From NCBI GenBank assembly GCA_028710985.1, contig JAQTTB010000001.1, positions 655,073-719,072 of the forward strand: a stretch of 64,000 bases of DNA, read 5' to 3'. The position numbers and the translations under genes are program-made. Positions 3,668-40,806 of this stretch are shown piece after piece. Origin of the DNA: Patescibacteria group bacterium (GTDB lineage: Bacteria > Patescibacteriota > Patescibacteriia > JAHJFT01). Each line of letters opens with the position of its first letter. Position 1 is the first letter of the stretch. Below the pieces are notes generated by a model, which was not told the origin of the DNA, ran no database searches, and saw only the letters and a list, made by a program, of their open reading frames with translations.

Positions 3668-4036
3668 ATGGAATCAGATATTATTAAAAGTTATCGAGAT
3701 TTGGTTGTTTGGCAGAAGTCAATGGATTTAGTAACCAAGATTTACGAATTGACTGAGCAGTTTCCGAGGTCGGAAATATTCGTTCTCACTGCGCAGATGA
3801 GACGTTGTGCTATATCGATTCCCTCAAATATCGCCGAGGGTAGAAGACGGGGTAGTCGGATTGAATTTCGACGCTTTCTAATTATCGCGTTTGGTTCCGG
3901 GGCCGAACTTGAGACCCAGCTCGAAATAGCTAAGAGATTATCTTTTGGAAAAAATTTTGACTTCAGTGCAATCGAATTATTACTCAATGAAATAATGAAG
4001 ATGCTCAATAAGATGATTGCGACATTGAGCAAGTAG
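3668..4036 (+). CDS. Four-helix-bundle protein of the 23S rRNA intervening-sequence protein family
   Basis: 122 aa with the characteristic LVVWQKS ... IPSNIAEG ... GSGAELETQL pattern. The gene is flanked by imperfect inverted repeats at 3613-3667 and 4034-4080. Confidence 0.7.
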   Translation: MESDIIKSYRDLVVWQKSMDLVTKIYELTEQFPRSEIFVLTAQMRRCAISIPSNIAEGRRRGSRIEFRRFLIIAFGSGAELETQLEIAKRLSFGKNFDFSAIELLLNEIMKMLNKMIATLSK

Positions 4037-4087
4037 GCGTATTTCCTACAAGCTGATTTCCTAACCTCCTAATTCCTAAAACCAAGC

Positions 4088-4558
4088 ATGATTACAGTTG
4101 ACTACTCATATTTCGAAAACACGTCATTAATTGAGCTCCTCATCTATTTCTTGATTGGCGCAATTATTATATTTTTTCTTGTTTGGAGTATTAATTTGCT
4201 TCGTCGTTTTCTCCGCCGACCCGAGCTTGAGGGCCTGGACCGGAAGGGGATTCAAACGCGCTGGCAAGAAATTGAATCCATGCTTGGAAAGGGAAGCGAG
4301 ATGACCGACAAGGTGGCCATTCTTGAAGCCGATAAGCTTTTAGACCACGCGCTCAAAGCCATGGCCATGCCCGGCACCACGCTCGGCGAGCGGCTCAAAG
4401 TCGCGACTTATAAATTTCCCAAGCTTCATCGCGTCTGGTGGTCGCACAAACTACGCAATCAGCTGGTGCACGAAGCGAGTTTCAGCGTCAGCCACCGTTC
4501 CGCCAAGTCGGCGATTGACGGTTTTAAAAACGCGCTCAAAGAACTTGGCGTACTTTAA
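4088..4558 (+). CDS. Hypothetical protein with an N-terminal transmembrane segment
   Basis: 156-aa ORF with one hydrophobic helix (LLIYFLIGAIIIFFLVW). No family was recognised. It is bounded by gcttgtagg-type repeats. Confidence 0.4.
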   Translation: MITVDYSYFENTSLIELLIYFLIGAIIIFFLVWSINLLRRFLRRPELEGLDRKGIQTRWQEIESMLGKGSEMTDKVAILEADKLLDHALKAMAMPGTTLGERLKVATYKFPKLHRVWWSHKLRNQLVHEASFSVSHRSAKSAIDGFKNALKELGVL

Positions 4559-4655
4559 CGAGCCTGCCTACCGGCAGGTAGGCTTGTAGCTTTTTAGCTT
4601 GTAGGAATTTTCCATTCGCAAGCTACCAGCTACAAGCTACCAGCTACAAGCTAGT

Positions 4656-5432
4656 ATGATTCCATATCTTCACCTAACAACCTTTAATCTCGGACCGATT
4701 CAATTTCAAGTCTGGGGAACGTTCGTCGCCCTGGGATTTATTGCCGCGATTTTATGCGCCTGGGTTTTTCTCAAACGCCGCGGTCTGAATCACGAAGCCG
4801 TCTGGGATATCAGTTTCGCCGGCCTTGTCGGCGCGGTCATCGGCGCCCGGCTCGGGCACGTGTTTTTTTACGAATGGCATTATTACGCCGCTCACGCGGC
4901 CGAGATATTTTACGTCTGGAAGCCGGGATATTCTTTTTTCGGCGGCTTGTTCGGAGTGATCGCCGGGTATTTGATTGTCGCCCGGATCAAGAAACTGAAT
5001 TATTTTAAATACGCGGACGCGCTGGCTTTCGCCGCGCCTCTCGGCATCGCGGTCGGGCGAATCGGGTGTTTTTTGATAAATGACCATCCGGGCATACGCA
5101 CCGCGTCGTTTCTGGGCGTTCATTATCCGCTCGGCGACCGTTTTGACCTCGGCCTCCTGGAATCCGCGGCCGCCGCGATCCTGTTCATCATTTTTATTAT
5201 GCTCGCGCGCAAAATGCGGACAACCGGTTTTTTCACCGGGCTGTTTCTTATTATGTATGGCGCAGTGCGTTTTGGCCTTGATTTTTTGCGGATCTGGGAC
5301 GGTCCGGGTGCGGAGGCGCGCTACGCGGGCCTCACACCGGCTCAATATTTTTCCATTGCAATTTTTATTATTGGAATCGCGTTGTTATTAAAACTGCGCG
5401 TAAAAAAAATAAATGTCCAAACACAAGCCTAA
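4656..5432 (+). CDS. lgt: Prolipoprotein diacylglyceryl transferase
   Basis: Lgt signature GRIGCF, multi-pass membrane topology, 258 aa. Confidence 0.85.
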   Translation: MIPYLHLTTFNLGPIQFQVWGTFVALGFIAAILCAWVFLKRRGLNHEAVWDISFAGLVGAVIGARLGHVFFYEWHYYAAHAAEIFYVWKPGYSFFGGLFGVIAGYLIVARIKKLNYFKYADALAFAAPLGIAVGRIGCFLINDHPGIRTASFLGVHYPLGDRFDLGLLESAAAAILFIIFIMLARKMRTTGFFTGLFLIMYGAVRFGLDFLRIWDGPGAEARYAGLTPAQYFSIAIFIIGIALLLKLRVKKINVQTQA

Positions 5433-6951
5433 ACTGCCGTACGTTATCGCGTTCATTACCGGCATGTGTATTATGGCGATTGAACTCACCGCGTCGCGCC
5501 TCTTGGCGCCGTATTTTGGTACATCTCTTTTTGTCTGGACTAATATTATCGCTGTCATCATGCTCGCGCTCGCGATTGGTTACTGGTTCGGCGGCCGCAT
5601 TTCCGAACGCCGTCCGGAGCTGTCGCTGTTGCTGAAGATAATTTTAACTGCCGGACTTTTTTGTTTCATTATTCCATTTGCGGTTGAGCCGCTTTCCATG
5701 GTTGTGCTTAAGGATTTTTCCGGCAGCGCCCCGGCGTCGGTTCTGATTCTCGTTGGTTCATTTTTTTCCACGCTAATTTTATTCTTCGTGCCGATTATGT
5801 TTCTGGGAATGTGCAGCCCTTTCCTGATTAAACTTGCATCGATTTTTGACCACAATATCGGCAACATCTCCGGTCGTATCTTTGCTATCTCCACGGTCGG
5901 CAGTATTGTCGGCACTTTTTTGCCGTCGATTGTATTCATCGCCTGGGTTGGATCAAAAAAGACCGTACTCATCTTTGCTGTTATCCTGATTATGACTGCC
6001 GCCTGGGGTCTGGCCCGGCGGAAGCATTATGCCTGGTTTGGATTTTTTATTTTCGTCGCCGGTCCGTTATTTGCGCCTTCGGCCCTAAGTTACGATCCGT
6101 CCATAATCTATCAAACCGAATCGGTCTACCAGTATATTCAAGTGCGGGAAAGAGAAGGGCTACGCGAATTAATCTACAATGAAGGAACCGGCACGCAATC
6201 GGCTTATCGTCTCGGGTCTGACTTGATCGGCCGGATGTATTTTGATGTTATGTCCGCCATCCCGGCATTTTTTGAGAAGGAAAATATTAAAATTTTAAAT
6301 ATCGGGCTTGCCGGCGGCACGGCTGTTCACGGCATGCTTGAGATTTTTCCGGACAAAGTATTCAATATTGACGGGGTTGAAATTGACGATAAGGTAATCC
6401 AGGTTGCGAAAAAATATTTTGACCTCGATCCAGCCAAGGTAAACATTTTCAATCTGGACGGCCGGATTTTCGCCCGAACCTCGGAAAAAAAATACGATCT
6501 GATTCTGGTCGATGCTTATTCAAACCAGCTTTACATTCCCTGGCACCTGGTAACCGATGAATTTTTCTTTGACCTGGGCAATATTCTTGAACCCCAGGGT
6601 ATTATAGCGCTTAATCTCAATGCCACATCCGAGGAATCCCGGCTTTACCGCGCCATTACCAATACCATGGCTCATAATTTCAAGTATGTTTATACCGCGC
6701 CGGTGGCCGATTCGTTCAATTACATAATTTTTTGCTCCGACGAGCCTCTGGAGTTTGACCGCCTGCTCTCGCACCCGGCCATTGTCGGCCGTCCGGATCT
6801 TTCGGAGATGATCCATTATCTTTCCCTGAATTCAAAATTAGTGAAATTCAATTCAGTCGAAGAGTTGCTCACCGACGACCGCGCTCCGGTTGAGCACATG
6901 ACCGACGCCATGTATTTTGACTATTTCACCAAGGAGCTGCATAAAAAATAA
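5413..6951 (+). CDS. Fused polytopic membrane domain plus spermidine synthase-like (class I methyltransferase fold) protein
   Basis: The N-terminal ~200 aa are strongly hydrophobic. The C-terminal part has a spermidine synthase-like GGTAVHG ... ILVDAYS pattern. Confidence 0.6.
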   Translation: MSKHKPKLPYVIAFITGMCIMAIELTASRLLAPYFGTSLFVWTNIIAVIMLALAIGYWFGGRISERRPELSLLLKIILTAGLFCFIIPFAVEPLSMVVLKDFSGSAPASVLILVGSFFSTLILFFVPIMFLGMCSPFLIKLASIFDHNIGNISGRIFAISTVGSIVGTFLPSIVFIAWVGSKKTVLIFAVILIMTAAWGLARRKHYAWFGFFIFVAGPLFAPSALSYDPSIIYQTESVYQYIQVREREGLRELIYNEGTGTQSAYRLGSDLIGRMYFDVMSAIPAFFEKENIKILNIGLAGGTAVHGMLEIFPDKVFNIDGVEIDDKVIQVAKKYFDLDPAKVNIFNLDGRIFARTSEKKYDLILVDAYSNQLYIPWHLVTDEFFFDLGNILEPQGIIALNLNATSEESRLYRAITNTMAHNFKYVYTAPVADSFNYIIFCSDEPLEFDRLLSHPAIVGRPDLSEMIHYLSLNSKLVKFNSVEELLTDDRAPVEHMTDAMYFDYFTKELHKK

Positions 6952-6959
6952 TCGGGCTT

Positions 6960-7880
6960 ATGCCAACGAATAAAAAAATCTACGATTGCGTAGTAATCGG
7001 CGGGGGACCGGCCGCCCTATCAGCGGCCATTTATCTTGCCCGTCAAAAGATGGATTTTGCATTAATCGCGTCGCAGGCCGGCGGGCAGGTCATTTTCAGC
7101 GAAGAGGTGGGGAATTATTTGGGATTTCGGACAATTTCCGGCGCCGCTCTTATAAAAAATTTCACCAATCATCTTACTGATTATAAAATCATTTTGATTG
7201 AGGGAGAAACCGTGAAACGCGTCTCCCGAAACGGCAAATCATTTATCGTCCGTACTGAAAATGATGCTTATTACTGCCGGACCGTGCTCGTTGCCACCGG
7301 CGAGAAATACCGCGAACTGAATGTTCCTGGCGAAAAAAAATATTTCGGAAAGGGAGTAACTTATTGCGCCACTTGTGATGCTCCGCTTTTTTCCGGCAAG
7401 GATGTTGTGGTGGTGGGCGGAGGCAACTCGGCCATGGAATCGGCTCTTCTTCTCGCCAAACACGCCCGGTCGGTTGCGATTCTCACTATTAATGATGCCC
7501 TCAAGGGCGAAAAACTGCTCATTGAAAGAATCAATCGCGACAGAAGTATTAGAGTAATCGCCGGCGCGAAAACCATCGGCATATTCGGCGATAAATTCGT
7601 GCGGAGTCTGCGCTACGAACAGGACGGCCGGCCGTACGACATCCCAATGCAGGGGATTTTCGTGGAGATCGGCCTGGTGCCGGCCGCTGACTTCATTGAT
7701 TTTGTTAAGAAAAATAAAAAGGGCGAAATTGTTATCAATAAGTACAATGCCGCGAGCGTCCCGGGCATCTGGGCCGCCGGCGATGTCACGGACGTTACTG
7801 TGAAACAGATTGCGGTTAGTGTGGGCGAAGGCGCCAAAGCCGCGGTTCAGATTATCGGATACATTCAAAAAAACGGATAG
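6960..7880 (+). CDS. trxB: Thioredoxin-disulfide reductase (FAD/NAD(P)-dependent)
   Basis: GGGPAA FAD-binding motif, redox-active CATCDAP, second Rossmann motif VVGGGNSA, and AAGDV near the C-terminus. Confidence 0.8.
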   Translation: MPTNKKIYDCVVIGGGPAALSAAIYLARQKMDFALIASQAGGQVIFSEEVGNYLGFRTISGAALIKNFTNHLTDYKIILIEGETVKRVSRNGKSFIVRTENDAYYCRTVLVATGEKYRELNVPGEKKYFGKGVTYCATCDAPLFSGKDVVVVGGGNSAMESALLLAKHARSVAILTINDALKGEKLLIERINRDRSIRVIAGAKTIGIFGDKFVRSLRYEQDGRPYDIPMQGIFVEIGLVPAADFIDFVKKNKKGEIVINKYNAASVPGIWAAGDVTDVTVKQIAVSVGEGAKAAVQIIGYIQKNG

Positions 7881-7943
7881 CATTGCGCTAGCCGATAAAA
7901 TGTGTTATAGTTATTTAATTAAAAAAATTAATCTATTTATTTT

Positions 7944-8690
7944 ATGGCCAAGGAGAATAAAAGTATATTTGGAGAAAATCCAACGTTATCATTTTTTCTA
8001 GGATTATTTGTCGGTCTCGCGTCATTCAGCACCATCGCGGCAATTATTCTGGTTCTGGCGATGTATTCCGGCAATCCGTTAAGTTTCGCCAAGAACGATG
8101 CGGCCGGCGATGCGGTTGCCGCTGGAGCGCAGGAGGCCGTCGCCGCCGAAGAGGACGTCGGAGTCGCCGAGGTTCCGGCAGTGGGTGAAACGGATTATGC
8201 CGTTGGTCCCGAAGACGCATCAATTACACTGATTGAATATTCGGATTTTGAATGTCCGTATTGCCTAAGTTACAAAACCACCATGGATCAGGTGCTCAAG
8301 GACTATGACGGAAAGATTCGTTTCGTTTTCCGTCATTTCCCGCTCTCATTCCATGAGAACGCGCGCGGCGCGGCCATGGCCGCCGAATGTGCCGGCGAGC
8401 AAGGCAAATTTTGGGAAATGTATGAAAAGATTTTTGACGCCAATGCTGATGGAACCATGGGAACCGATGTCTGGAAACAGGCGGCTAAGGAAATCGGGTT
8501 AAATACCGGCGATTTCAATGTCTGTCTTGATGAGAACCGTTACGACAGTAAGATAAACGAGGAAATGCAGACTGGCGCCCAAGCCGGCGTCCGCGGCACT
8601 CCGGCCACATTCATCAACGGCCAGATGGTTTCCGGAGCCCTGCCGATTGCGGATCTTGAAGCGATCTTGGACCAGATTCTGGCACAGTAG
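7944..8690 (+). CDS. DsbA-family thiol:disulfide oxidoreductase with an N-terminal membrane anchor
   Basis: CPYC active site, a thioredoxin-fold pattern and one N-terminal transmembrane helix. Confidence 0.75.
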   Translation: MAKENKSIFGENPTLSFFLGLFVGLASFSTIAAIILVLAMYSGNPLSFAKNDAAGDAVAAGAQEAVAAEEDVGVAEVPAVGETDYAVGPEDASITLIEYSDFECPYCLSYKTTMDQVLKDYDGKIRFVFRHFPLSFHENARGAAMAAECAGEQGKFWEMYEKIFDANADGTMGTDVWKQAAKEIGLNTGDFNVCLDENRYDSKINEEMQTGAQAGVRGTPATFINGQMVSGALPIADLEAILDQILAQ

Positions 8691-23390: not shown

Positions 23391-23901
23391 GGGATTCGCC
23401 ACATTATCGCTTTACGTCCTGCTCGCGCTCCTTGAAATAAGTTTTCTCGCGTCCTTGCCGTATCCGATTAATCTGACGAGTTTGGTGATACCGGTACTCC
23501 TTATATTTATGGTTTCCGGCCACAACCGCGAGGCATGGACATACATTTTCGTAACCGGCATATTGTTTGATATATTTTGTTTCTATTCGATCGGCGCGTA
23601 CATTTTGATTTTTGCGGCCCTGTATCTCTGGGGAAGGAATATTTTTATGAATTACGTATCTAACGCATCGCTTCTCGGCGTTGGGCTTATCGGCAGCGCC
23701 ATGGTCGTGCCGTACTGGCTGCTCCGCCATATTTTGAATTCGTTCGACGGAGGTTTGGAAAAATTTTCCAGCGGGCAGGAGTTCCAGGTCATTCTGACCG
23801 CCATGCTGGTGAACATCGCATTTGTTTTTATTTTTTATTCCCTGTACCGGTTTTTTTCAAAGATGGGCAGGCCGAAAAAAATGGCGTATGGAAAAATATA
23901 A
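23383..23901 (+). CDS. mreD: Rod shape-determining protein MreD-like membrane protein
   Basis: 172 aa with five hydrophobic helices, located after mreC. Confidence 0.55.
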   Translation: MIRGFATLSLYVLLALLEISFLASLPYPINLTSLVIPVLLIFMVSGHNREAWTYIFVTGILFDIFCFYSIGAYILIFAALYLWGRNIFMNYVSNASLLGVGLIGSAMVVPYWLLRHILNSFDGGLEKFSSGQEFQVILTAMLVNIAFVFIFYSLYRFFSKMGRPKKMAYGKI

Positions 23902-24292
23902 AAAACTTGAGCATCCGGCCGATCTGCGCCTCCGCGTTTTTGGCCGCGATATGGCCGAACTTTTTCAAAACGCGCTCTTCGGTATGTTTGAAAGCATTGA
24001 GCCGGATATTGCTTCACGGGATTTGGTGCGCCGCAAAATTCAGGTTCAGGCCGGTGATCCGGAGCTGCTGCTTGTGGATTTTTTGAGCGAAGCTCTGCTT
24101 CAGAGCGACACTCATGACGAGGCGTATCATGATGCCGAAATTGATAATCTTGCCGCTGACTCGGTTACCGCGACCCTGATCGGTTATCCGATCCGCGGTT
24201 TCCGGCAGGAGATAAAAGCCGTTACTTATCATGGATTTAAAATTGAGCAAACGGCCGAGGGGCTCACGGCGGAAATAATTTTTGATATATAA
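23888..24292 (+). CDS. Archease (RtcB activator)
   Basis: N-terminal LEHPADLRLRVFG archease motif, ~135 aa, immediately upstream of rtcB with an overlapping stop and start. Confidence 0.65.
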   Translation: MEKYKKLEHPADLRLRVFGRDMAELFQNALFGMFESIEPDIASRDLVRRKIQVQAGDPELLLVDFLSEALLQSDTHDEAYHDAEIDNLAADSVTATLIGYPIRGFRQEIKAVTYHGFKIEQTAEGLTAEIIFDI

Positions 24293-25745
24293 AATGGATA
24301 TAAAGCAATTAAAACGAATTGAGGATTATCTCTACGAAATTCCGGCGGATTCCCGCCGCGGCATGCTGGTTCCGGCGCGCATTTATGCCACCGCGCGCAT
24401 GCTTGAGGAGATTTCCAGCGACAGTTCTCTCGATCAGCTTATCAACGTTGCCGCGCTCCCGGGTATTCAAAAATATGCGCTCGCCATGCCCGACATTCAC
24501 GAAGGCTACGGATTTCCCATCGGCGGCGTCGCGGCCATGGATTTTTCCGAAGGCGTGGTTTCGCCCGGCGGCGTGGGATATGACATAAACTGCGGCGTGC
24601 GACTTCTCCGGAGCGGATTGAAAGTTGAAGAAATTTCGGAAAAATTAAAATCACTCGCGCATCAGATCAGCCGCGATGTGCCAAGCGGGGTCGGCCGGGG
24701 CGGTGAGATTGTTCTCACTCCCGAAGATCTTGACGAGGTTTTGAAAAAAGGAGTAAAGCGCCTGCTTGAACTTGGCTGGGCGGAAAAAAACGATCTGGAA
24801 AACATTGAAGAAAACGGCTGCATGAAAAACGCGGATCCCGAAGCCGTGAGCGCGCAGGCCAAAAAGCGCGGGCGAGACCAGCTCGGCACGCTCGGCTCAG
24901 GTAATCATTTTTTGGAAATCCAGGCGGTTGATCAAATCTACGACGAGCCGCTTGCCAAAGAACTCGGCATTGAAACCGGCCGCGTTATGGTGATGATTCA
25001 CACCGGCTCGCGCGGCTTGGGCCATCAGGTCTGCACGGATTATGTAAAAATCATGGCGCCAAAACTCGCGAAATGGGGGATTGAGCTCCCGGACCGCGAG
25101 CTTGCCTGCGCCCCGATTTCATCCCCCGAAGGGAAAAGCTATCTTGCGGCCATGGCCGCGGCCGCGAACTTTGCCTGGTCAAACCGCCAGATGATTACGC
25201 ACCTTATCCGCAATGCCTGGAAGCGCATCCTTGAACCCGCCGGGCTCGATCCGCGGCTTGATACAGTCTATGATGTTGCCCACAATATTGCTAAAATTGA
25301 AGAGCACATAATCAAGGACAAAAAAGTTAAACTTTGCGTGCACCGCAAGGGCGCGACGCGCGCCTTTGGTCCGGGCCGGCCCGAGCTCAACGAGCTCTAC
25401 CGGCGCATCGGACAGCCGGTGCTGATTCCCGGAACCATGGGAACCTCATCGTATCTGCTCATGGGCACGGAAATGGCGGAAAAAACCACCTTTGGTACGG
25501 TGTGCCACGGCGCCGGCCGCCGCATGAGCCGGCACGAGGCCAAACGCAGAATCACCGGCCCCGAAGTGCGCAAAGAGCTTGAATCGCGCGGCATTATTGT
25601 CGAATGCGCTTCATCCGCCGGTCTGGCCGAAGAAGCGCCGCTCGCATACAAGGACGTGGATGAAGTGGTGGACGTTGTCGTGCGCGCCGGATTGGCTAAA
25701 CGCGTTGCGAAGTTAAAGCCAATTGCCGTGATTAAGGGAGGGTAG
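24282..25745 (+). CDS. rtcB: RNA-splicing ligase RtcB (3'-phosphate/5'-hydroxyl RNA ligase)
   Basis: Conserved metal and GTP site motifs: GYDINCG, HTGSRGLGHQ, HNIA ... and GTVCHGAGR. 487 aa. Confidence 0.9.
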   Translation: MIYKMDIKQLKRIEDYLYEIPADSRRGMLVPARIYATARMLEEISSDSSLDQLINVAALPGIQKYALAMPDIHEGYGFPIGGVAAMDFSEGVVSPGGVGYDINCGVRLLRSGLKVEEISEKLKSLAHQISRDVPSGVGRGGEIVLTPEDLDEVLKKGVKRLLELGWAEKNDLENIEENGCMKNADPEAVSAQAKKRGRDQLGTLGSGNHFLEIQAVDQIYDEPLAKELGIETGRVMVMIHTGSRGLGHQVCTDYVKIMAPKLAKWGIELPDRELACAPISSPEGKSYLAAMAAAANFAWSNRQMITHLIRNAWKRILEPAGLDPRLDTVYDVAHNIAKIEEHIIKDKKVKLCVHRKGATRAFGPGRPELNELYRRIGQPVLIPGTMGTSSYLLMGTEMAEKTTFGTVCHGAGRRMSRHEAKRRITGPEVRKELESRGIIVECASSAGLAEEAPLAYKDVDEVVDVVVRAGLAKRVAKLKPIAVIKGG

Positions 25746-25790
25746 GAGACAGTTCAATGAATTTTTTTTACTTTCATTACATAATGCGCA

Positions 25791-26963
25791 ATGGAAAAAC
25801 AAGCATTACAACCAAACATTATTTTCAGACTCGTATTAGCAAAAACGCTCTTCAAGAGTGGTTTAGAGTGTTGCGATACCGGAGTGGATATTTACAATTT
25901 TTCTCATGGGTTGATCGCTCTGCACGATGCTCTGGACAATTTTTCGGGTGCGATAGCATCAATTTTGAATATTGCTCTTAGTCGGCCCAGTAAATTTATT
26001 GATACGTTAGATTCAATTGAGCAATACGAGAAAAAATCTAATTCAAATTTCGTATTAACGAGTAGGAATGAATTATACCAGCTCAACACTCTTCGTAATA
26101 GTATTAAGCACCAAGGAATTGTTCCCGATATCAAACACGCCAAGGCATTGATAGAGCCGATTGTTAAATTTTTCAAAGAATATTCCCGTTATTATTTCGA
26201 CCTAGAATGGGATATTATTAGCCTGGCGGATTTGATAAAAAATGACACTACGAAAAATGCACTTAATAAAGTTGAGAAATTTATTGGCCGTGGTCAACAT
26301 AAAGAAGCATTGAACGAAATGGCTATTATAAAATTTCAAGTATTTGATGAACAACATATTCGAGCAAAACTTGATTCACGATTGGCGGCCTACTACCTAG
26401 AAACGGCAAACATTGAAAAGCTAAGAATGGCTAAAAATATATTTCCTAAGCGAGAAATATTAGTTTCAGACACTGACCAACGTACTCGGCTTCTTGAATG
26501 GGGTATCGATAGTGGTCAGATGCAGAAATTCGAAGATTTAACCGCGGAAGTTGGTATTAATAACGTGAATGATTGGGAGTATGTGTTAAGGCACGGTAGC
26601 GCCTGGGGAAGACCCAACTGGACTAGGGAAATCTCAATTTTCTGTTTCGATTTTTTGATAGATGCCATTATTAAACACCAGCGTAAAGATTATGGAGTAA
26701 GGCAGGTGGTCATTCCATGGCTCATTCATATAAGGGCGCGAGAAGAAATTAAATTGTATGTTGATGATAAAGAAATATACTCTATTTCAAAAGGCGAAGA
26801 ACGCGTTGCGCTAATTCCCGGTAGGGTAGATGATGGCTGGGAAATTTTCGAAAATAAAGATCGCTTGTTGGTTCTTATGGATAAAGATGGCAGTGCGAGC
26901 AATATGATTTCGGGCTTCTTCAATGAGGGAGATGAGGACAAAATTGAAATTCTAGGAAAGTAA
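25791..26963 (+). CDS. Hypothetical protein with an N-terminal HEPN-like Rx4H motif, in an AT-rich island
   Basis: 390 aa. The motif LRNSIKHQG at about residue 103 matches the HEPN R-x4-6-H signature in the position expected for a ~120-aa N-terminal HEPN domain. GC is about 35% against ~55% in flanking rtcB. Confidence 0.45.
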   Translation: MEKQALQPNIIFRLVLAKTLFKSGLECCDTGVDIYNFSHGLIALHDALDNFSGAIASILNIALSRPSKFIDTLDSIEQYEKKSNSNFVLTSRNELYQLNTLRNSIKHQGIVPDIKHAKALIEPIVKFFKEYSRYYFDLEWDIISLADLIKNDTTKNALNKVEKFIGRGQHKEALNEMAIIKFQVFDEQHIRAKLDSRLAAYYLETANIEKLRMAKNIFPKREILVSDTDQRTRLLEWGIDSGQMQKFEDLTAEVGINNVNDWEYVLRHGSAWGRPNWTREISIFCFDFLIDAIIKHQRKDYGVRQVVIPWLIHIRAREEIKLYVDDKEIYSISKGEERVALIPGRVDDGWEIFENKDRLLVLMDKDGSASNMISGFFNEGDEDKIEILGK

Positions 26964-27132
26964 TTTTTCTCAAGGATGGGCATGGAAAGATAAATAGAAT
27001 AATCAGTAATCAAAGATAGTTTGATGAGAATATGATTTATAAAAACCGCTCCTAAGCAGAGTCAAACTCTAGTTATTCTAATGCGCATAACATAGCTAGG
27101 GCTTTAAGATTCATCCGCAAAATTAAATTTTT

Positions 27133-27648
27133 ATGCAAACAAAACGATTAACAGCCGATGAAATCATCACACTGAATGATTTTCCGGTGCACAACGGGCA
27201 GATATTGAAAATATTTTTTATTATATTTAGAAAAAAATGTTCTAAAATTATTCCACCTTGCCCTATAATGGATGTATCCTTGGTACTTCCTTTTTTCTCG
27301 GCCAAGCTTAAAAATCTATTTTTAAAATTTAGAATCAAGAACCCCCAAGCAAAATATTTTTTACTCGATGGTAGTCACAAAACAACCGCGGCGGCACTAA
27401 CCGGATCGCGAATTCCAGTAATGATTTTAAAAAATAACAAAGACATACAAGAAGCCAAGCAAATGGTAAAAATAGGCGATTTATTTAGTTTGACGGTAGC
27501 GAATACTATGAAAAATAACGCCATTGAATTGAAAAATCATTTTAACAAGAAAAAATATTTTCAAACAGTAAATGAGAAAACTCAAATAATGGTAAAGAAA
27601 AAAGTCATTCCCCGGTATATGATTGATTATTACAAGAAGCATAAATAA
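27133..27648 (+). CDS. Hypothetical protein with a ParB/Srx-like DGxH[KR]xxAA motif
   Basis: 171 aa. LLDGSHKTTAAAL resembles the ParB/sulfiredoxin-fold signature (DG.HR..A). AT-rich. Confidence 0.4.
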   Translation: MQTKRLTADEIITLNDFPVHNGQILKIFFIIFRKKCSKIIPPCPIMDVSLVLPFFSAKLKNLFLKFRIKNPQAKYFLLDGSHKTTAAALTGSRIPVMILKNNKDIQEAKQMVKIGDLFSLTVANTMKNNAIELKNHFNKKKYFQTVNEKTQIMVKKKVIPRYMIDYYKKHK

Positions 27649-27651
27649 TTC

Positions 27652-28173
27652 TTGAGCAATAATTTTAACAGCATGGGTTACTATATTATCATCCGTGGAC
27701 CACTGGGTTGCGGTAAATCAACAATATCCGAGAAACTCGCTCATATTCTTGACGCTAAATATATTGGAATGGACGAGGTGCTAGAAAAACACGGGCTTGA
27801 TAAAATGCCGCCCGACGCACCCTGCATCCCAGCGGAAAACTTTATTAAAGCAAACGAAATTATCGTGCCAGAAGCTAAGCAGCTTTTAGACGCCGGCAAA
27901 ATAGTTATTTTTGATGCGTGCTTCTATCATAGAGAAGTAATTGAGCACCTCTTGAAGAATCTTCTTTATGAACATTACATTTTTACGCTAAGGGCACCGC
28001 CGGAGCTCTGCATTAAAAGAGATAGCGAGCGTCATAAAACCCATGGTGAAGGCGCGGCATTAGCCGTTCATTCGCTCGTTTCTCGGTTTGATTATGGCAA
28101 TATTATTGACGTTACCGGAAGCCTCGAAGACGCATTGAAAGATATTCTTTCCTATTTGCCTTTAAAAAATTAA
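27652..28173 (+). CDS. P-loop NTPase / small-molecule or polynucleotide kinase-like (AAA_33, zeta-toxin or Pnk-like)
   Basis: Walker A GPLGCGKST, Walker B-like VIFDACF. At ~170 aa it is typical of standalone kinases. Confidence 0.6.
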   Translation: MSNNFNSMGYYIIIRGPLGCGKSTISEKLAHILDAKYIGMDEVLEKHGLDKMPPDAPCIPAENFIKANEIIVPEAKQLLDAGKIVIFDACFYHREVIEHLLKNLLYEHYIFTLRAPPELCIKRDSERHKTHGEGAALAVHSLVSRFDYGNIIDVTGSLEDALKDILSYLPLKN

Positions 28174-28187
28174 CTCGCTTACAACGT

Positions 28188-28538
28188 ATGGAAGAAAAAC
28201 AAATTACCACAATGAAGGATGCGCAGAAATTACTCAAATTTTTTGCCGAGCGTAATAATTGGAAAGATGTTCCGAATGTTGATAAGTTTGACCATCTGCA
28301 CGAGGAATTGATTGAGATGTCTCAACATTTGAGATATAAATCAGAAGAAGAACGCAATAAATTCGTTGAGGATAATAAAGAGATTTTTATTGATGGTATC
28401 GGCGATTTGTTTTTCGGAACGTGTCGTCTTGCCAATCAACTTGGTGTAGATATTGAAGAAGCTTTCAATTTGGTAAAGAAAGAAATTCTAGGAAAATATA
28501 ATCATAAAAATCCAGAAAATAATTTAACAGCAGATTAA
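28188..28538 (+). CDS. MazG-like all-alpha NTP pyrophosphohydrolase (YpjD-like small form)
   Basis: LHEELIEMSQHL and IDGIGDLFFGTCRLANQLGVDIEEAF align with the EExxE ... E.D metal-binding helices of MazG/YpjD. 116 aa. Confidence 0.6.
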   Translation: MEEKQITTMKDAQKLLKFFAERNNWKDVPNVDKFDHLHEELIEMSQHLRYKSEEERNKFVEDNKEIFIDGIGDLFFGTCRLANQLGVDIEEAFNLVKKEILGKYNHKNPENNLTAD

Positions 28539-28603
28539 AAAATCGTTCTTTGATACAAATACTTTTAAAGAATTGGACTCAATGACAAAATAAGGAGGAA
28601 CCC

Positions 28604-28804
28604 ATGATCTCGAGCCAGAAATTACTGGATATGGTGGCAACCGAGGCCCTTTCATCGGACACTCATCGATGCCATCGATGTGGACGCACATTTTCACCCA
28701 ACGAAGATGGTTGTCCGTTCTGCGGCACGAATGCACCCGTTTCACCAATCCCCGAGCTGCCAAAACCGGGGACCGGATCAGGGGAAGATGAAGAAAACAA
28801 GTGA
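28604..28804 (+). CDS. Small zinc-ribbon protein
   Basis: HRCHRCG ... CPFCG motifs and a strong SD AAGGAGG upstream. Confidence 0.5.
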   Translation: MISSQKLLDMVATEALSSDTHRCHRCGRTFSPNEDGCPFCGTNAPVSPIPELPKPGTGSGEDEENK

Positions 28805-28886
28805 TTCAATTCACTCCTGGGGGAAGTCGGATAATGGCTTCCCCAATTCTCTAAGAGTATTTGTCGCTCAACAAATTCGTAGCTAT

Positions 28887-29525
28887 ATGATCTACAAAAA
28901 CCGCTCCGAAGCGGGCAAGGCCTTAGCCAAGGAGATTAAGACAATCAAAAAGCTCGGGGAATGCGTTGTCGTGGCTTTGCCGCGCGGCGGAGTGGTGCTT
29001 GGTGCGGAAATTGCCAGGGCCATGAAATTGCCGCTTGACATTGTGGTGCCGCGCAAAATCGGCGCTCCGGAAAATCCGGAATTTGCCGCCGGCGCCATTG
29101 CCGAAGACGGCGAGTTTATTGCCAATCCGGACGCCGGAAAAATTGAAAAAGATTATCTGGAAAAAGAAATTGAAAAAGAGAAGCAGGAATCCAGCCGCCG
29201 CCTTAAGACATACCGCGGCGACCGGCCAGTGCGTCAATTTGAGGGCAAGACCATCCTGCTCGTGGACGACGGAATCGCCACCGGCCTCACTATGATTGCC
29301 GCCATCCGGACTCTCCGCAAAATGGGTGTGAAAAAAATTATTATCTGCGTGCCGGTCTCGGCCCAGGATTCGTATAACCGCATCAACCCCATGGTTGAGC
29401 GCGTCATCTGCCCGTCGGTCCCGTTTCTATTCGGGGCCGTGGGCCAGTTTTACCGCGAGTTTCCGCAGGTTGAAGACAACGAAGTCGTTGAATTAATGTC
29501 ATTAGTATATGAAAACCGCGCCTAA
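28887..29525 (+). CDS. Type I phosphoribosyltransferase-domain protein
   Basis: N-terminal MIYKNRSEAG ... and PRPP-binding VLLVDDGIATGLTM. The start was moved to ATG 28887; the longer tracked ORF overlaps the preceding gene. Confidence 0.75.
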   Translation: MIYKNRSEAGKALAKEIKTIKKLGECVVVALPRGGVVLGAEIARAMKLPLDIVVPRKIGAPENPEFAAGAIAEDGEFIANPDAGKIEKDYLEKEIEKEKQESSRRLKTYRGDRPVRQFEGKTILLVDDGIATGLTMIAAIRTLRKMGVKKIIICVPVSAQDSYNRINPMVERVICPSVPFLFGAVGQFYREFPQVEDNEVVELMSLVYENRA

Positions 29526-30417
29526 AATAATATTCAGCCTCGGAACCCATCCCCAGCTTGAGAAAAAGATTTTTAAATTACTGAATTTCGAAATCGGTCA
29601 ATTTGAAGACCGGGTTTTTGGCAATCACGAATATTATGCCCGGATCAAAAGCGATGTAAAAAATAAAATTTGCATTTTACTTGCTGTGATTACCGAGCCG
29701 GTTGGCGAGTTTATGAAACTGCTCGTTATCGTAAACGCCTTTAAATCAAACGGTGCAAAAAAGATTGCCGTCGTTATGCCGTACTTTATATATTCGCGCC
29801 AGGACCGCGTGGATAAGCCAGGCGCGCCGGTAACGCGCGATCTCGCGGCCAATCTCCTGGCCTCGGCCGGCGCCGACCGGATTATCACGGTTGACTTGCA
29901 CAATCCGTCCGGGCTGGGAATCATAAAAAAAATTATTAATTTGTCACCCCTCGGGTCAATGCCTCCGGCAGTCAAAAATTATGTTGATTCATCCTGGACA
30001 ATTGCCGCCCCTGATCATGGCGCAGTCAAGCGCGCCCGGGATCTCGCCGCCGTTCTGAAAATTAAAAAAATTATTGAACTTACAAAAGCGCGGCCGCGTC
30101 CTGGCGAGGCGCGCATTGTCGGCATCACCGGAGCCCCGGCCAAGGACCAGAAGATCCTGATCGTTGACGATATGATTGATTCCGGCGGAACGCTTATCCA
30201 GGCAGCGAATTTCCTGAAGGAGCGCGGCGCTATGCAGATTGCCGCGGTCTGCACGCACGGGATTTTTTCCGGTGCCGCGGCCGATTCAATAAATCGTTCG
30301 GTTATCAAAAAGGTTTTCGCTTCTGAAAGCCTGCCGCAGTGCCCCAAATGTTCGGGCAAGATTTCTTATTATCCGATTGACAGCCTCATCGCGCAGGGCA
30401 TAAAAAAACATGTATAA
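29509..30417 (+). CDS. prs: Ribose-phosphate pyrophosphokinase (PRPP synthetase)
   Basis: Prs motifs including DLHNP and the PRPP loop ILIVDDMIDSGGTL. 302 aa. Confidence 0.9.
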   Translation: MKTAPKIIFSLGTHPQLEKKIFKLLNFEIGQFEDRVFGNHEYYARIKSDVKNKICILLAVITEPVGEFMKLLVIVNAFKSNGAKKIAVVMPYFIYSRQDRVDKPGAPVTRDLAANLLASAGADRIITVDLHNPSGLGIIKKIINLSPLGSMPPAVKNYVDSSWTIAAPDHGAVKRARDLAAVLKIKKIIELTKARPRPGEARIVGITGAPAKDQKILIVDDMIDSGGTLIQAANFLKERGAMQIAAVCTHGIFSGAAADSINRSVIKKVFASESLPQCPKCSGKISYYPIDSLIAQGIKKHV

Positions 30418-34422: not shown

Positions 34423-34812
34423 ATGAGCCATTCAATGAAATTTAGTGATCTGGAAATATGGAAAATCGGATTCAAGTCGCTATCGGAAATCTACGCGTTA
34501 ATTAAAAACTTTCCTAAATTTGAACAGTTCGCGTTAGCTAGCCAGTCAATTAGATCAGCAAATTCGATCATTGCCAATATCGCTGAAGCTCATGGTAGAT
34601 ATTTTTTCAACGACAAGATACGGATATTGTATATCGCACGCGCCGAGGCCGAAGAGGTTCAGAGTCATTTAATGGTAGCTTGCTCGCAAGAATATATTTC
34701 AAAAGAAATTGCCAACCAGTTAATTGAAAGATATGAAGTTCTTATTAAAAAAATCAATTCATATATTTCATACCTGTCGCAGAAACGTCCTGACTCACCG
34801 ATTAACCGATAA
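34423..34812 (+). CDS. Four-helix-bundle protein of the 23S rRNA intervening-sequence protein family
   Basis: 129 aa with the same family pattern as 3668-4036 (IWKIGFKSLSEIY ... NIAEAHGRY ... AEAEEVQSHL). It is flanked by inverted repeats of the ggtgaatcggtt family at 34371-34402 and 34797-34823. Confidence 0.7.
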   Translation: MSHSMKFSDLEIWKIGFKSLSEIYALIKNFPKFEQFALASQSIRSANSIIANIAEAHGRYFFNDKIRILYIARAEAEEVQSHLMVACSQEYISKEIANQLIERYEVLIKKINSYISYLSQKRPDSPINR

Positions 34813-39876: not shown

Positions 39877-40806
39877 ATGATAAAGGACTTTAAAGTCGCA
39901 AAGCATTTCAAAAAACACCGCCTTCTTGATCATTCGCGCCGCGTTGGCCGTTACAAAAATCCGCTTTTTGCCCAGCGCGCCGACCAGATTTTAAAATTGC
40001 GCAAGGTTAAAAAGCGCATCATCATTGTCGCGGTTATTGTCGCGGTTTGCGCTCTGTTTTATTTTTTTATCATCGGGCCGTATTTTTATATATCAAAAGT
40101 ATCGGTTGAGGGAATCAATACTATCAAGGGCCAGGAACTCCAGAAATTGGTTGAAGAATTTTTAAACACGCGCCGTTATTTAGTTTTGCCAAATCAGAAT
40201 ATTTTATTTATGGACACTGGTCGCCTGCGTCGCGAGATAGGGGAGAACTACGTGTTGGATGATTTAAAAATAAAGAGGAAATTACCAAATGAATTAATAT
40301 TGCAGATTCAGGAACGTGCGTCAGACTCCATTCTGTCTATTGGCGGAAATTATTATTATTTGGATTCCCGTGGTATTATTTTGCGACGCTTGAGTGAGGC
40401 AGAGATTTATCCCGGTCTTTCGGCCGGTCCGTTTAGCGGAGACCTGCCGGAATTCAAAAATATTATTGACGAAAGAACTTTGCCGTTAATCTATGTATTG
40501 ACTCCAGGCGATGTACAGATTGGCCAGCAGTTCATGAATTTTGAATGTTACGACAAAATACTCGGATCTCAGTATATTCTGACCATGAACACGCCATATA
40601 CCATTAAATATTTTAAAATAAACGATTTAAACGTCAGGTGGTTCAAGCTGGTAACCGTCGATGGTTGGGAAATACATCTTGATTTGGACAAGAATTTGCA
40701 AACGCAGATTGTAAAAGTTTACACTTTTATAAAGGAAGAAAAATTAAATCCGTCCGATTATCAATATTTCAATGCGCGTTATGAAGATAAGATATATTAT
40801 AAGTAG
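39877..40806 (+). CDS. FtsQ/DivIB-like cell-division protein (POTRA domain)
   Basis: Single N-terminal transmembrane helix followed by a POTRA-like pattern (ISKVSVEGINTIKGQEL ... NILFMD ... ELILQIQER). Confidence 0.5.
   Translation: MIKDFKVAKHFKKHRLLDHSRRVGRYKNPLFAQRADQILKLRKVKKRIIIVAVIVAVCALFYFFIIGPYFYISKVSVEGINTIKGQELQKLVEEFLNTRRYLVLPNQNILFMDTGRLRREIGENYVLDDLKIKRKLPNELILQIQERASDSILSIGGNYYYLDSRGIILRRLSEAEIYPGLSAGPFSGDLPEFKNIIDERTLPLIYVLTPGDVQIGQQFMNFECYDKILGSQYILTMNTPYTIKYFKINDLNVRWFKLVTVDGWEIHLDLDKNLQTQIVKVYTFIKEEKLNPSDYQYFNARYEDKIYYK

Follow-up and report, generated by a model that had tools for sequence, protein, structure and literature searches.

An AT-rich segment of foreign composition (positions 25746..28603) was analyzed in a 64-kb stretch of DNA, hereafter referred to as the window, from a metagenome-assembled genome (MAG) of the Patescibacteria (candidate phyla radiation, CPR). 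The segment carries four genes on one strand, to which we gave the working names P1 (HEPN-type), P2 (ParB/Srx-fold), P3 (P-loop kinase), and P4 (MazG-like). Our analysis indicates that the segment is probably mosaic and goes back to two or more independent acquisitions, namely a solitary HEPN gene and a P2-P3-P4 block for nucleotide or metabolite phosphotransfer and house-cleaning, and not a four-gene machine. An earlier note on this DNA had located four same-strand genes with the motifs LRNSIKHQG, LLDGSHKTTAA, and GPLGCGKST, all of which were recovered, and had considered that the four might act as one system. This last proposal was not borne out, because P1 loci share no neighbor, P4 loci are devoid of P1, P2, and P3, and P2 loci contain neither P1 nor a close relative of P4.

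These results were obtained by comparing gene co-occurrence in approximately 160 related loci. Six independent P1 loci (the window, L013, L015, L017, L171, and L173) had no common neighbor (BLASTP E<1e-4). Neither a relative of P1 nor a close relative of P4 was found in the 69 P2 loci, and no relative of P1, P2, or P3 was seen near P4 in 80 loci from metagenomes (L088-L167), 24 of which had 1.5 kb or more of sequence on either side. The complete set of four genes, as well as the set of P2, P3, and P4, for which a conserved neighborhood had been considered, recurred in 0/69 P2 loci and 0/80 P4 loci; the pair of P2 and a P3-type kinase was found again in 10 of the 69.

The insertion history of the segment was traced by a 28-nt direct repeat on the + strand. 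Its left copy (27030..27057) lies in the spacer between P1 and P2, and its right copy (28885..28912) comprises the start codon and the first 8 codons (MIYKNRSEA) of a phosphoribosyltransferase gene (PRTase, 28887-29525; Pribosyltran, 2.2e-21). The left copy is a relic of this gene start with seven codons followed by a stop (ATG ATT TAT AAA AAC CGC TCC TAA, i.e. MIYKNRS-stop). Both copies are identical at 25/28 nt with no third match in the window (0 expected), and their local alignment score of 41 compares to a maximum of 24 over 200 shuffles. Because the repeat brackets P2-P3-P4 (a block of ~1.86 kb, 27030-28884) and leaves P1 outside, it argues for separate insertion events, at least two. 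The repeat-bounded block would have brought in P2, P3, and P4, and its position beside PRTase and prs would turn the locus into a nucleotide salvage and sanitation neighborhood, fitting a salvage-dependent organism. Between P4 and PRTase, a Zn-ribbon open reading frame (ORF) of 66 aa (28604-28804, + strand, GC 52-55%) with weak matches to Zn_ribbon_15 and DZR is flanked by a 22-nt inverted repeat (28555-28576 and 28843-28864), which is complementary at 20/22 nt and unique in the window (0 expected). This inverted repeat could represent a miniature element or a long-range RNA stem.

The deviating composition, from which an AT-rich island had been proposed, was confirmed. The GC content of positions 25750-28560 was 36.0%, corresponding to z = -5.1 relative to the other 2.8-kb windows of the 64-kb stretch (mean 48.7%, sd 2.5%, minimum 41.7%). 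The immediate flanks had 54-56% GC, though the window as a whole had 48%. In windows of 100 nt, the drop occurred within 100 nt of the rtcB stop codon (~25740) and the recovery at ~28600; these sharp edges, together with GC and GC content at third codon positions (GC3), delimit the segment from the rtcB stop codon to the GC-rich Zn-ribbon ORF. GC3 was 0.35 for P1, 0.33 for P2, 0.40 for P3, and 0.28 for P4, as compared to 0.63 for rtcB, 0.64 for PRTase, 0.55 for prs, and 0.62 for mreB, and the shift therefore sits at synonymous sites and not in amino acid content alone. A foreign origin by horizontal acquisition, as the earlier note had assumed, is supported by this contrast in GC3 together with the flanking direct repeat. 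An Rfam search over 25500-29100 gave no credible match, and scans for promoters and terminators gave results at or below chance. No island-free strain was found, since exact-protein look-ups with P1, P2, and archease returned the same genome only, from two sequencing runs.

P1, a HEPN-type protein

P1 (25791..26963, + strand, 390 aa) is identical to NCBI PHW53_03355, which, like the NCBI counterpart of P2, is encoded on a contig of 744,538 bp. In an AlphaFold2 (AF2) model, it is composed of an N-terminal HEPN domain (residues ~1-140), a helical middle domain (~145-300), and a beta-rich C-terminus (~310-390). The pLDDT of the model was 85.5, with values of 87-96 over most of residues 11-130 and 80 for residues 61-70. 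The best Foldseek match of the N-terminal bundle was AF_0298 (2hsb, TMt 0.74, prob 1.00), and further HEPN matches were obtained with the HepT structures 5yep, 6m6u, and 7ae8 (SO_3166, MntA-HepT; prob 0.93-0.99). These matches had E-values of just 0.3-0.6, an effect of the query length of 390 aa. The C-terminus gave weak SH3-like matches.

The HEPN superfamily is marked by an Rx4-6H motif that is conserved within each family and in which the arginine is mostly followed by a polar residue (PMC3710099). The corresponding motif in P1 is R102-N-S-I-K-H107. Across 58 family members with 18-36% identity, D46, R102, and H107 were the only invariant columns; R102 and H107 were also invariant in 26 close members. 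As the modeled four-helix bundle matches solved HEPN structures and the Rx4H motif is invariant, P1 is, by its predicted fold and its motif, a HEPN protein, in line with the earlier assignment.

The family of P1 is large. An exhaustive profile search returned 2,481 cluster representatives at E<=1e-3 and 1,406 at <=1e-10, the clusters (~2,500) being defined at 50% identity. Most representatives cover profile positions ~5-300, and their C-termini are variable. A k-mer-seeded search found 35 relatives, and every one of them with a taxon label was assigned to the Patescibacteria. P1 matched phrog_37995, a PHROG family without an assigned function, at 3.3e-11 (residues 9-302). No Pfam, NCBIfam, or PADLOC model matched P1, and the family profiles of P1 and P2 yielded only noise against the sequences of the PDB. 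A few distant members showed weak matches to Pfam HEPN and to the HEPN parts of the Csx1, Csm6, and Cas13a models. The P1 family is hence a large HEPN family without a Pfam or PADLOC model.

The gene surroundings of P1 relatives were diverse. An integrase, a Hypoth_Ymh protein, and an Imm5-like protein were found in L013, a LexA-methyltransferase and a muramidase in L015, and ORFans in L171. A gene for an MNT nucleotidyltransferase did not adjoin P1 in the window, nor was it conserved across the six loci. In all, P1 behaves like a lone cargo gene of variable regions, conflict-type in flavor and without an antitoxin-like partner. Three further observations were made next to members of the family. 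On a CPR-type contig (L173, 5550-6491), a TIR/SEFIR protein adjoins the P1-family gene. On one Streptomyces plasmid (L176, 1486-3323), a distant relative lies beside two genes annotated as 'abortive infection family' and a PIN gene, and on another (L175, 2433-3329) beside DUF4231, with a zeta toxin nearby. A gene for 171 aa downstream of the P1 homolog in L017 was suspected to be a P2-like partner and was rejected, as it is unrelated to P2 (E = 87).

Based on its family, P1 would be a metal-independent endoribonuclease that dimerizes to build a composite HEPN active site and cleaves RNA, leaving 5'-OH ends and ends with a 2',3'-cyclic phosphate. Because a conserved partner gene is missing, we propose that its two other parts, the helical middle domain and the beta-rich C-terminal one, might serve as a built-in regulator or sensor. 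The protein may thus be a single-gene effector of the conflict, stress, or abortive-infection type.

P2, its kinase neighbors, and P4

P2 (27133..27648, + strand, 171 aa; identical to NCBI PHW53_03360) has the ParB/Srx (ParB-CTPase) fold, as had been suggested from its motif. In a structure comparison, P2 scored 8.6 and 7.5 with sulfiredoxin, 7.2 with Atu1540, 7.1 with each of PadC and KorB, 6.6 with each of SbnI and free serine kinase (SerK), and 6.4 with pNOB8 ParB-N. Foldseek agreed with these structural matches. No sequence-level similarity to any solved ParB/Srx member was detected, and P2 had no family match in Pfam, NCBIfam, PADLOC, or PHROG; in Pfam, nothing was found at E<=1, PF02195 (ParBc) included. 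Likewise, none of the 72 relatives found had a precomputed Pfam domain. A helix-turn-helix match was not obtained.

The residues D79, G80, H82, T84, T85, A86, D104, and K149 are invariant in the P2 family, and six of them form the loop D79-G80-x-H82-x-T84-T85-A86, in which position 81 is serine or threonine and position 83 lysine or arginine. The sulfiredoxin stretch F-G-G-C-H-R-Y-A-A (human sequence, checked in the PDB) aligns to L-D-G-S-H-K-T-T-A of P2, and the next strand aligns as well (ETIPAKLV versus SRIPVMIL). P2 shares the sulfiredoxin fold without being a sulfiredoxin, because the catalytic cysteine is replaced by serine or threonine (S81), while the pair of histidine and basic residue is kept. 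Additionally, P2 has a C-terminal helical extension (residues ~126-170). Sulfiredoxin, SerK, and SbnI use the ParB/Srx fold as an ATP-binding enzymatic module, as described in a survey of ParB-CTPase folds anchored on PF02195 (PMC12704722). The P2 family was probably missed by this survey, because it lacks a match to PF02195. The D-G-[ST]-H-[KR]-T-T-A loop of P2 corresponds to the FGGCHR loop with which sulfiredoxin binds ATP, and P2 may use it to bind a nucleotide; the protein would catalyze a coupled phosphotransfer step or assist in it.

A scan of GTDB with one genome per species yielded the 69 P2 loci, and about three quarters of them are in archaeal MAGs, mostly labeled Woese-, Nano-, Pace-, or Aenigmarchaeota; the others carry CPR, Chloroflexota, and a few other labels. 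Identities of P2 to its relatives were 29-76%. The linkage to P3-type kinases mentioned above refers to distances of at most 300 nt. At the same distance, a kinase of the aminoglycoside phosphotransferase (APH) fold (PF01636 2e-20, choline-kinase-like) was found in 13/69 loci, and either kinase adjoined P2 in 22/69. APH genes occur on either side and on either strand of P2; the P2-P3 pair was seen in either order and orientation. For both kinases, overlaps of 4 nt were common. All three genes were clustered in L021 and formed the row APH-P2-P3 in L055 (APH 3943-4857, P2 4890-5399, P3 5396-5917). In several MAGs of DPANN archaea (L055, L021, L058, L062, L065, and L077), an overlap of 4 nt between the APH/choline-kinase-like gene and the start of the P2 homolog is common. 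P2-P3 is a recurrent gene pair in DPANN archaea and CPR bacteria.

The closest relative of P2 on a large contig (L004, equal to L019; 76% identity) is located in another CPR genome, in the row dCMP deaminase, P2, NUDIX, P3, deaminase, and a weakly MazG-like protein of 113 aa (5468-8314). The last protein was rejected as evidence of synteny with P4, of which it is a distant relative (E ~1e-3), and the row provides a theme of nucleotide sanitation without orthology to P4. Two unannotated proteins of ~165 aa follow this row. Another relative of P2 (L169, 77% identity) had neither P3 nor P4 nearby; two genes for 162 aa lie near it.

P3 (27673..28173, + strand) is a P-loop kinase of the PSTK/KTI12/AAA_33 type, PSTK being L-seryl-tRNA(Sec) kinase. 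The earlier note had spaced the last three genes by 3 and 14 nt. The 14 nt between P3 and P4 were confirmed, whereas the gap between P2 and P3 is 24 nt, because P3 very probably begins at ATG 27673 (MGYYIIIRGPLG, 166 aa) according to the gene callers and all 11 homologs; the reading frame is open from TTG 27652 (173 aa). P3 matched AAA_33 at 1.8e-10 with 41.7 bits (Pfam cut-off 27), and a profile of 12 members matched PSTK (3a4l) at 9e-8 over positions 4-137, approximately the whole core, which sustained the kinase assignment. All 12 members matched TIGR03574 far below its cut-off (P3, 23.6 versus 290.5 bits). Invariant in the family are G9-x2-G12-x-G14-K15, which lies in the Walker A motif GPLGCGKST, as well as D34, D81, and R116-D117-x2-R120. 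With Walker A, aspartate, and RxxxR lid, P3 belongs by sequence to the AAA_33/PSTK group of kinases.

The P3 homologs of this bacterium and of DPANN archaea are 48-57% identical, and P3 of the window is nearest to archaeal forms, as judged by E-value and the shared motif IPAxNFIKA. P3 is expected to use the gamma-phosphate of ATP to phosphorylate a hydroxyl on a small metabolite, nucleoside-like or other; an RNA end is the less likely acceptor. In one locus (L033, 1930-2943), a P3-family kinase is fused to GrpB (PF04229, 3.2e-34). In another (L025, 6503-7390), it carries an N-terminal domain with a CX5R(S) motif and without a Pfam match; that this domain is a phosphatase is a guess at the level of the motif.

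P4 (28188..28538, + strand, 116 aa) is a putative MazG/YpjD-like all-alpha nucleoside triphosphate (NTP) pyrophosphohydrolase. Among PDB sequences, it matched YpjD of B. subtilis (2gta, 6.6e-5) and a nucleotide pyrophosphohydrolase (5ie9, 1.2e-4), in agreement with the earlier assignment; matches to Pfam MazG-like and NCBIfam mazG were weak and below the gathering cut-offs. At least 724 homologs were found. The best 120 listed were 75-93% identical, came from both CPR and DPANN, and are named 'NTP pyrophosphatase (non-canonical NTP hydrolase)' by JGI. H36, H38, E39, E40, E43, D69, and D73 are invariant. In the metal-binding set EExxE ... ExxD, E39-E40-x-x-E43 and D73 are thus retained, and the fourth acid is D69 in place of glutamate. 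Overall, the catalytic residues that had been proposed for the four proteins were kept in homologs (R102/H107, the DG-H loop, K15, and E39/E40/E43/D73).

The 80 P4 loci showed 71-94% identity across CPR bacteria and DPANN archaea. An identity this unusually high between domains points to frequent transfer or very strong constraint, or to a combination of the two. The neighbors of P4 varied and included a guanylate-kinase-like gene, NUDIX, a fragment resembling ribonucleotide reductase, and a CobA-like gene. As a member of its family, which is ubiquitous in CPR and DPANN, P4 would be a stand-alone MazG-type house-cleaning enzyme that hydrolyzes non-canonical (d)NTPs to (d)NMPs and pyrophosphate, with Mg2+ presumably held by E39, E40, E43, D69, and D73.

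The gene order around the segment is mreB-mreC-mreD-archease-rtcB, P1-P2-P3-P4, and Zn-ribbon ORF-PRTase-prs-PBP2. On the upstream side, the called genes archease (23888-24292) and rtcB (24294..25745, + strand, 483 aa, GC 0.557) matched the Pfam domains PF01951 and PF01139, respectively. On the downstream side, prs (29509-30417; Pribosyltran_N, 1.7e-26) follows PRTase. The window contains two further patches of low GC (~38-40%). One of them (3-1910) holds an ORF of 635 aa with ResIII C-terminal as its sole match, and the other (39877-40806) encodes an FtsQ-type POTRA protein. A protein of 129 aa (34423-34812) matched the 23S rRNA-intervening-sequence family (PF05635, 1.5e-28) and has a weak bAvd-like match.

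Weighing of the possible explanations

Several results weigh against a mosaic of unrelated acquisitions, or against parts of it. All four genes point in the same direction in this genome and lie close together, so that co-transcription is possible, and a joint function here could be compatible with the comparative data. The sample of P1 neighborhoods comprises six independent loci only. The GC dip is partly intrinsic to genes of the P1, P2, and P4 type and to that extent no proof of recent transfer, because their relatives are AT-richer than their own flanks in most hosts (medians of -7.5, -4.4, and -6.7 points, respectively); the gap of approximately -13 to -17 points at this locus lies at the far end of that range. 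The GC-rich Zn-ribbon ORF looks native and sits inside the repeat-bounded block, for which a simple model of one insert between two att copies does not account, and no integrase or recombinase gene was found in the segment or between the copies of the direct repeat. Two thirds of the P2 loci have no adjoining kinase, which implies that P2 also functions by itself or together with partners encoded elsewhere. Finally, a nucleic acid end fits the PSTK- and polynucleotide kinase (PNK)-like features of P3 as well as a small molecule does.

Within the mosaic, we tentatively propose a role for P2 that is possible at best: it could form the center of a phosphotransfer module not described before, which DPANN and CPR share by horizontal transfer and in which P2 is coupled to a PSTK-like kinase, an APH-fold kinase, or both, as in the APH-P2-P3 row of L055. 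P2 itself would be a new ATP- or ADP-dependent small-molecule kinase or a nucleotide-handling subunit, similar to SerK or SbnI with another substrate, and would serve salvage in ultra-small symbionts.

That P2 is coupled to kinases of two unrelated folds, in many cases by 4-nt overlaps, would also suit a pair of the toxin-antitoxin type, in which the kinase (P-loop zeta-like or APH/HipA-like) is the toxin, swapped between genomes, and P2 the shared antidote. Zeta toxins and the AAA_33 group share the P-loop kinase fold, one P3 homolog matched Zeta_toxin (0.0066), and the pair was transferred horizontally between domains. We consider such a pair unlikely, since approximately two thirds of the P2 genes have no kinase next to them and both P2 and P3 are strongly conserved (at the identities given above) among housekeeping genes such as aminoacyl-tRNA synthetases and peptidases. 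The fusions of P3 to GrpB and to the CX5R(S) domain point to metabolism, and PADLOC gave no match.

That the segment is the remnant of a phage or virus with a nucleotide-metabolism cassette, an alternative raised in the earlier note, was weakened to the point of being rather improbable. The foreign composition and the flanking repeat would suit it, as would the match of P1 to phrog_37995 and those of P3 and P4 to the PHROG kinase and MazG families. Yet no relative of P1, P2, P3, or P4 was found in IMG/VR (with narrow peptide patterns, which makes these weak negatives), and 50,697 records of GenBank phages gave neither a DNA match to the segment nor a protein match for P1. Moreover, the segment contains no integrase or structural gene, and relatives of P2 and P4 reside in ordinary chromosomal contexts.

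The start of P1, 45 nt after rtcB, brings to mind a cassette for RNA damage and repair around rtcB and archease, with P1 cutting, RtcB resealing, and P3 processing 5'-OH ends. The products of HEPN nucleases (2',3'-cyclic phosphate and 5'-OH) are substrates of RtcB; the Walker A motif, aspartate, and RxxxR of P3 are common to polynucleotide and tRNA kinases; and the fusion of one P3 homolog to a possible phosphatase domain resembles PNK-phosphatases. This explanation is very doubtful, however, as the native GC content of rtcB and archease contrasts with the foreign island, as neither gene occurs in the other P1, P2, or P3 loci whose genes were listed, and as RtcB does not need a 5' kinase.

A single new defense or toxin system directed against nucleotides, with the HEPN protein as effector and ParB/Srx, kinase, and MazG modules, is highly improbable: the genes are co-oriented and tightly packed within one foreign island, each of the four domain types occurs in known defense systems, and TIR, Abi, or PIN genes lie beside some relatives of P1, but the arrangement recurred at none of the P2 and P4 loci, the six P1 loci had no common neighbor, the direct repeat separates P1 from the other three genes, and the cross-domain identities of P4 and P3 are unlike those of fast-evolving defense genes. 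As the earlier note had presumed, the arrangement matches no named system: in PADLOC-DB v2, no defense model matched P1, P2, or P4, and P3 gave just P-loop noise (matches of Walker A length, the best at 3.1e-4 over residues 8-38). The literature offered nothing specific on the four-gene combination or on HEPN in Patescibacteria.

Comparison with known systems

The mosaic reading removes a candidate for a new defense system that had been based on the proximity of genes in one genome, and it illustrates that unrelated acquisitions can add up to what looks like a single island by composition. Two modest leads emerge in its place. The first is the HEPN family of P1 (~2,500 clusters), a single gene in variable regions that is sometimes found beside TIR, Abi, or PIN genes. 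The second is a ParB/Srx-fold protein without assignment to a sequence family, which is repeatedly and tightly coupled to two kinase folds in DPANN and CPR. Together with the MazG-like P4, because of its identity of 71-94% across two domains, this second lead is relevant to the gene pool that ultra-small symbionts share and to their salvage metabolism.

P1 resembles HepT and AF_0298 in its four-helix core (TMt 0.5-0.74), the Rx4-6H motif on the last helix, and an acidic residue on helix 2 (D46). It differs from these and from the Abi-type HEPN families (PMC3710099) in its length of 390 aa with two additional domains, from HepT-MntA in having no MNT or other conserved partner gene, and from known HEPN families in remaining unrecognized by the HEPN models of Pfam and PADLOC.

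Compared to sulfiredoxin, SerK, and SbnI, P2 possesses a C-terminal helical part, and the catalytic cysteine of sulfiredoxin is serine or threonine; the genomic coupling to kinases has not been described for sulfiredoxin or SerK. Just ~80-94 residues of P2 align to ParB-type structures. The canonical ParB CTP clamp has a helix-turn-helix DNA-binding domain, a C-terminal dimerization domain, and the box II GERR(x)R; both domains are absent from P2, and its loop reads DGSHK. P3 shares with PSTK, KTI12, and AAA_33 kinases the Walker A motif GxxGxGK[ST], the aspartate after strand 2, and the R-D-x-x-R lid. Unlike PSTK, it ends after the kinase core at 166 aa and lacks the C-terminal tRNA-binding domain, and its scores are far below every NCBIfam cut-off. 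P4, in turn, has the single domain of ~115 aa, the EExxE motif, and the acidic pair before the last helix in common with the YpjD subgroup of MazG (2gta, 5ie9), whereas its second motif is D-G-I-G-D instead of E-E-x-G-D and its family is unusually conserved across bacteria and archaea.

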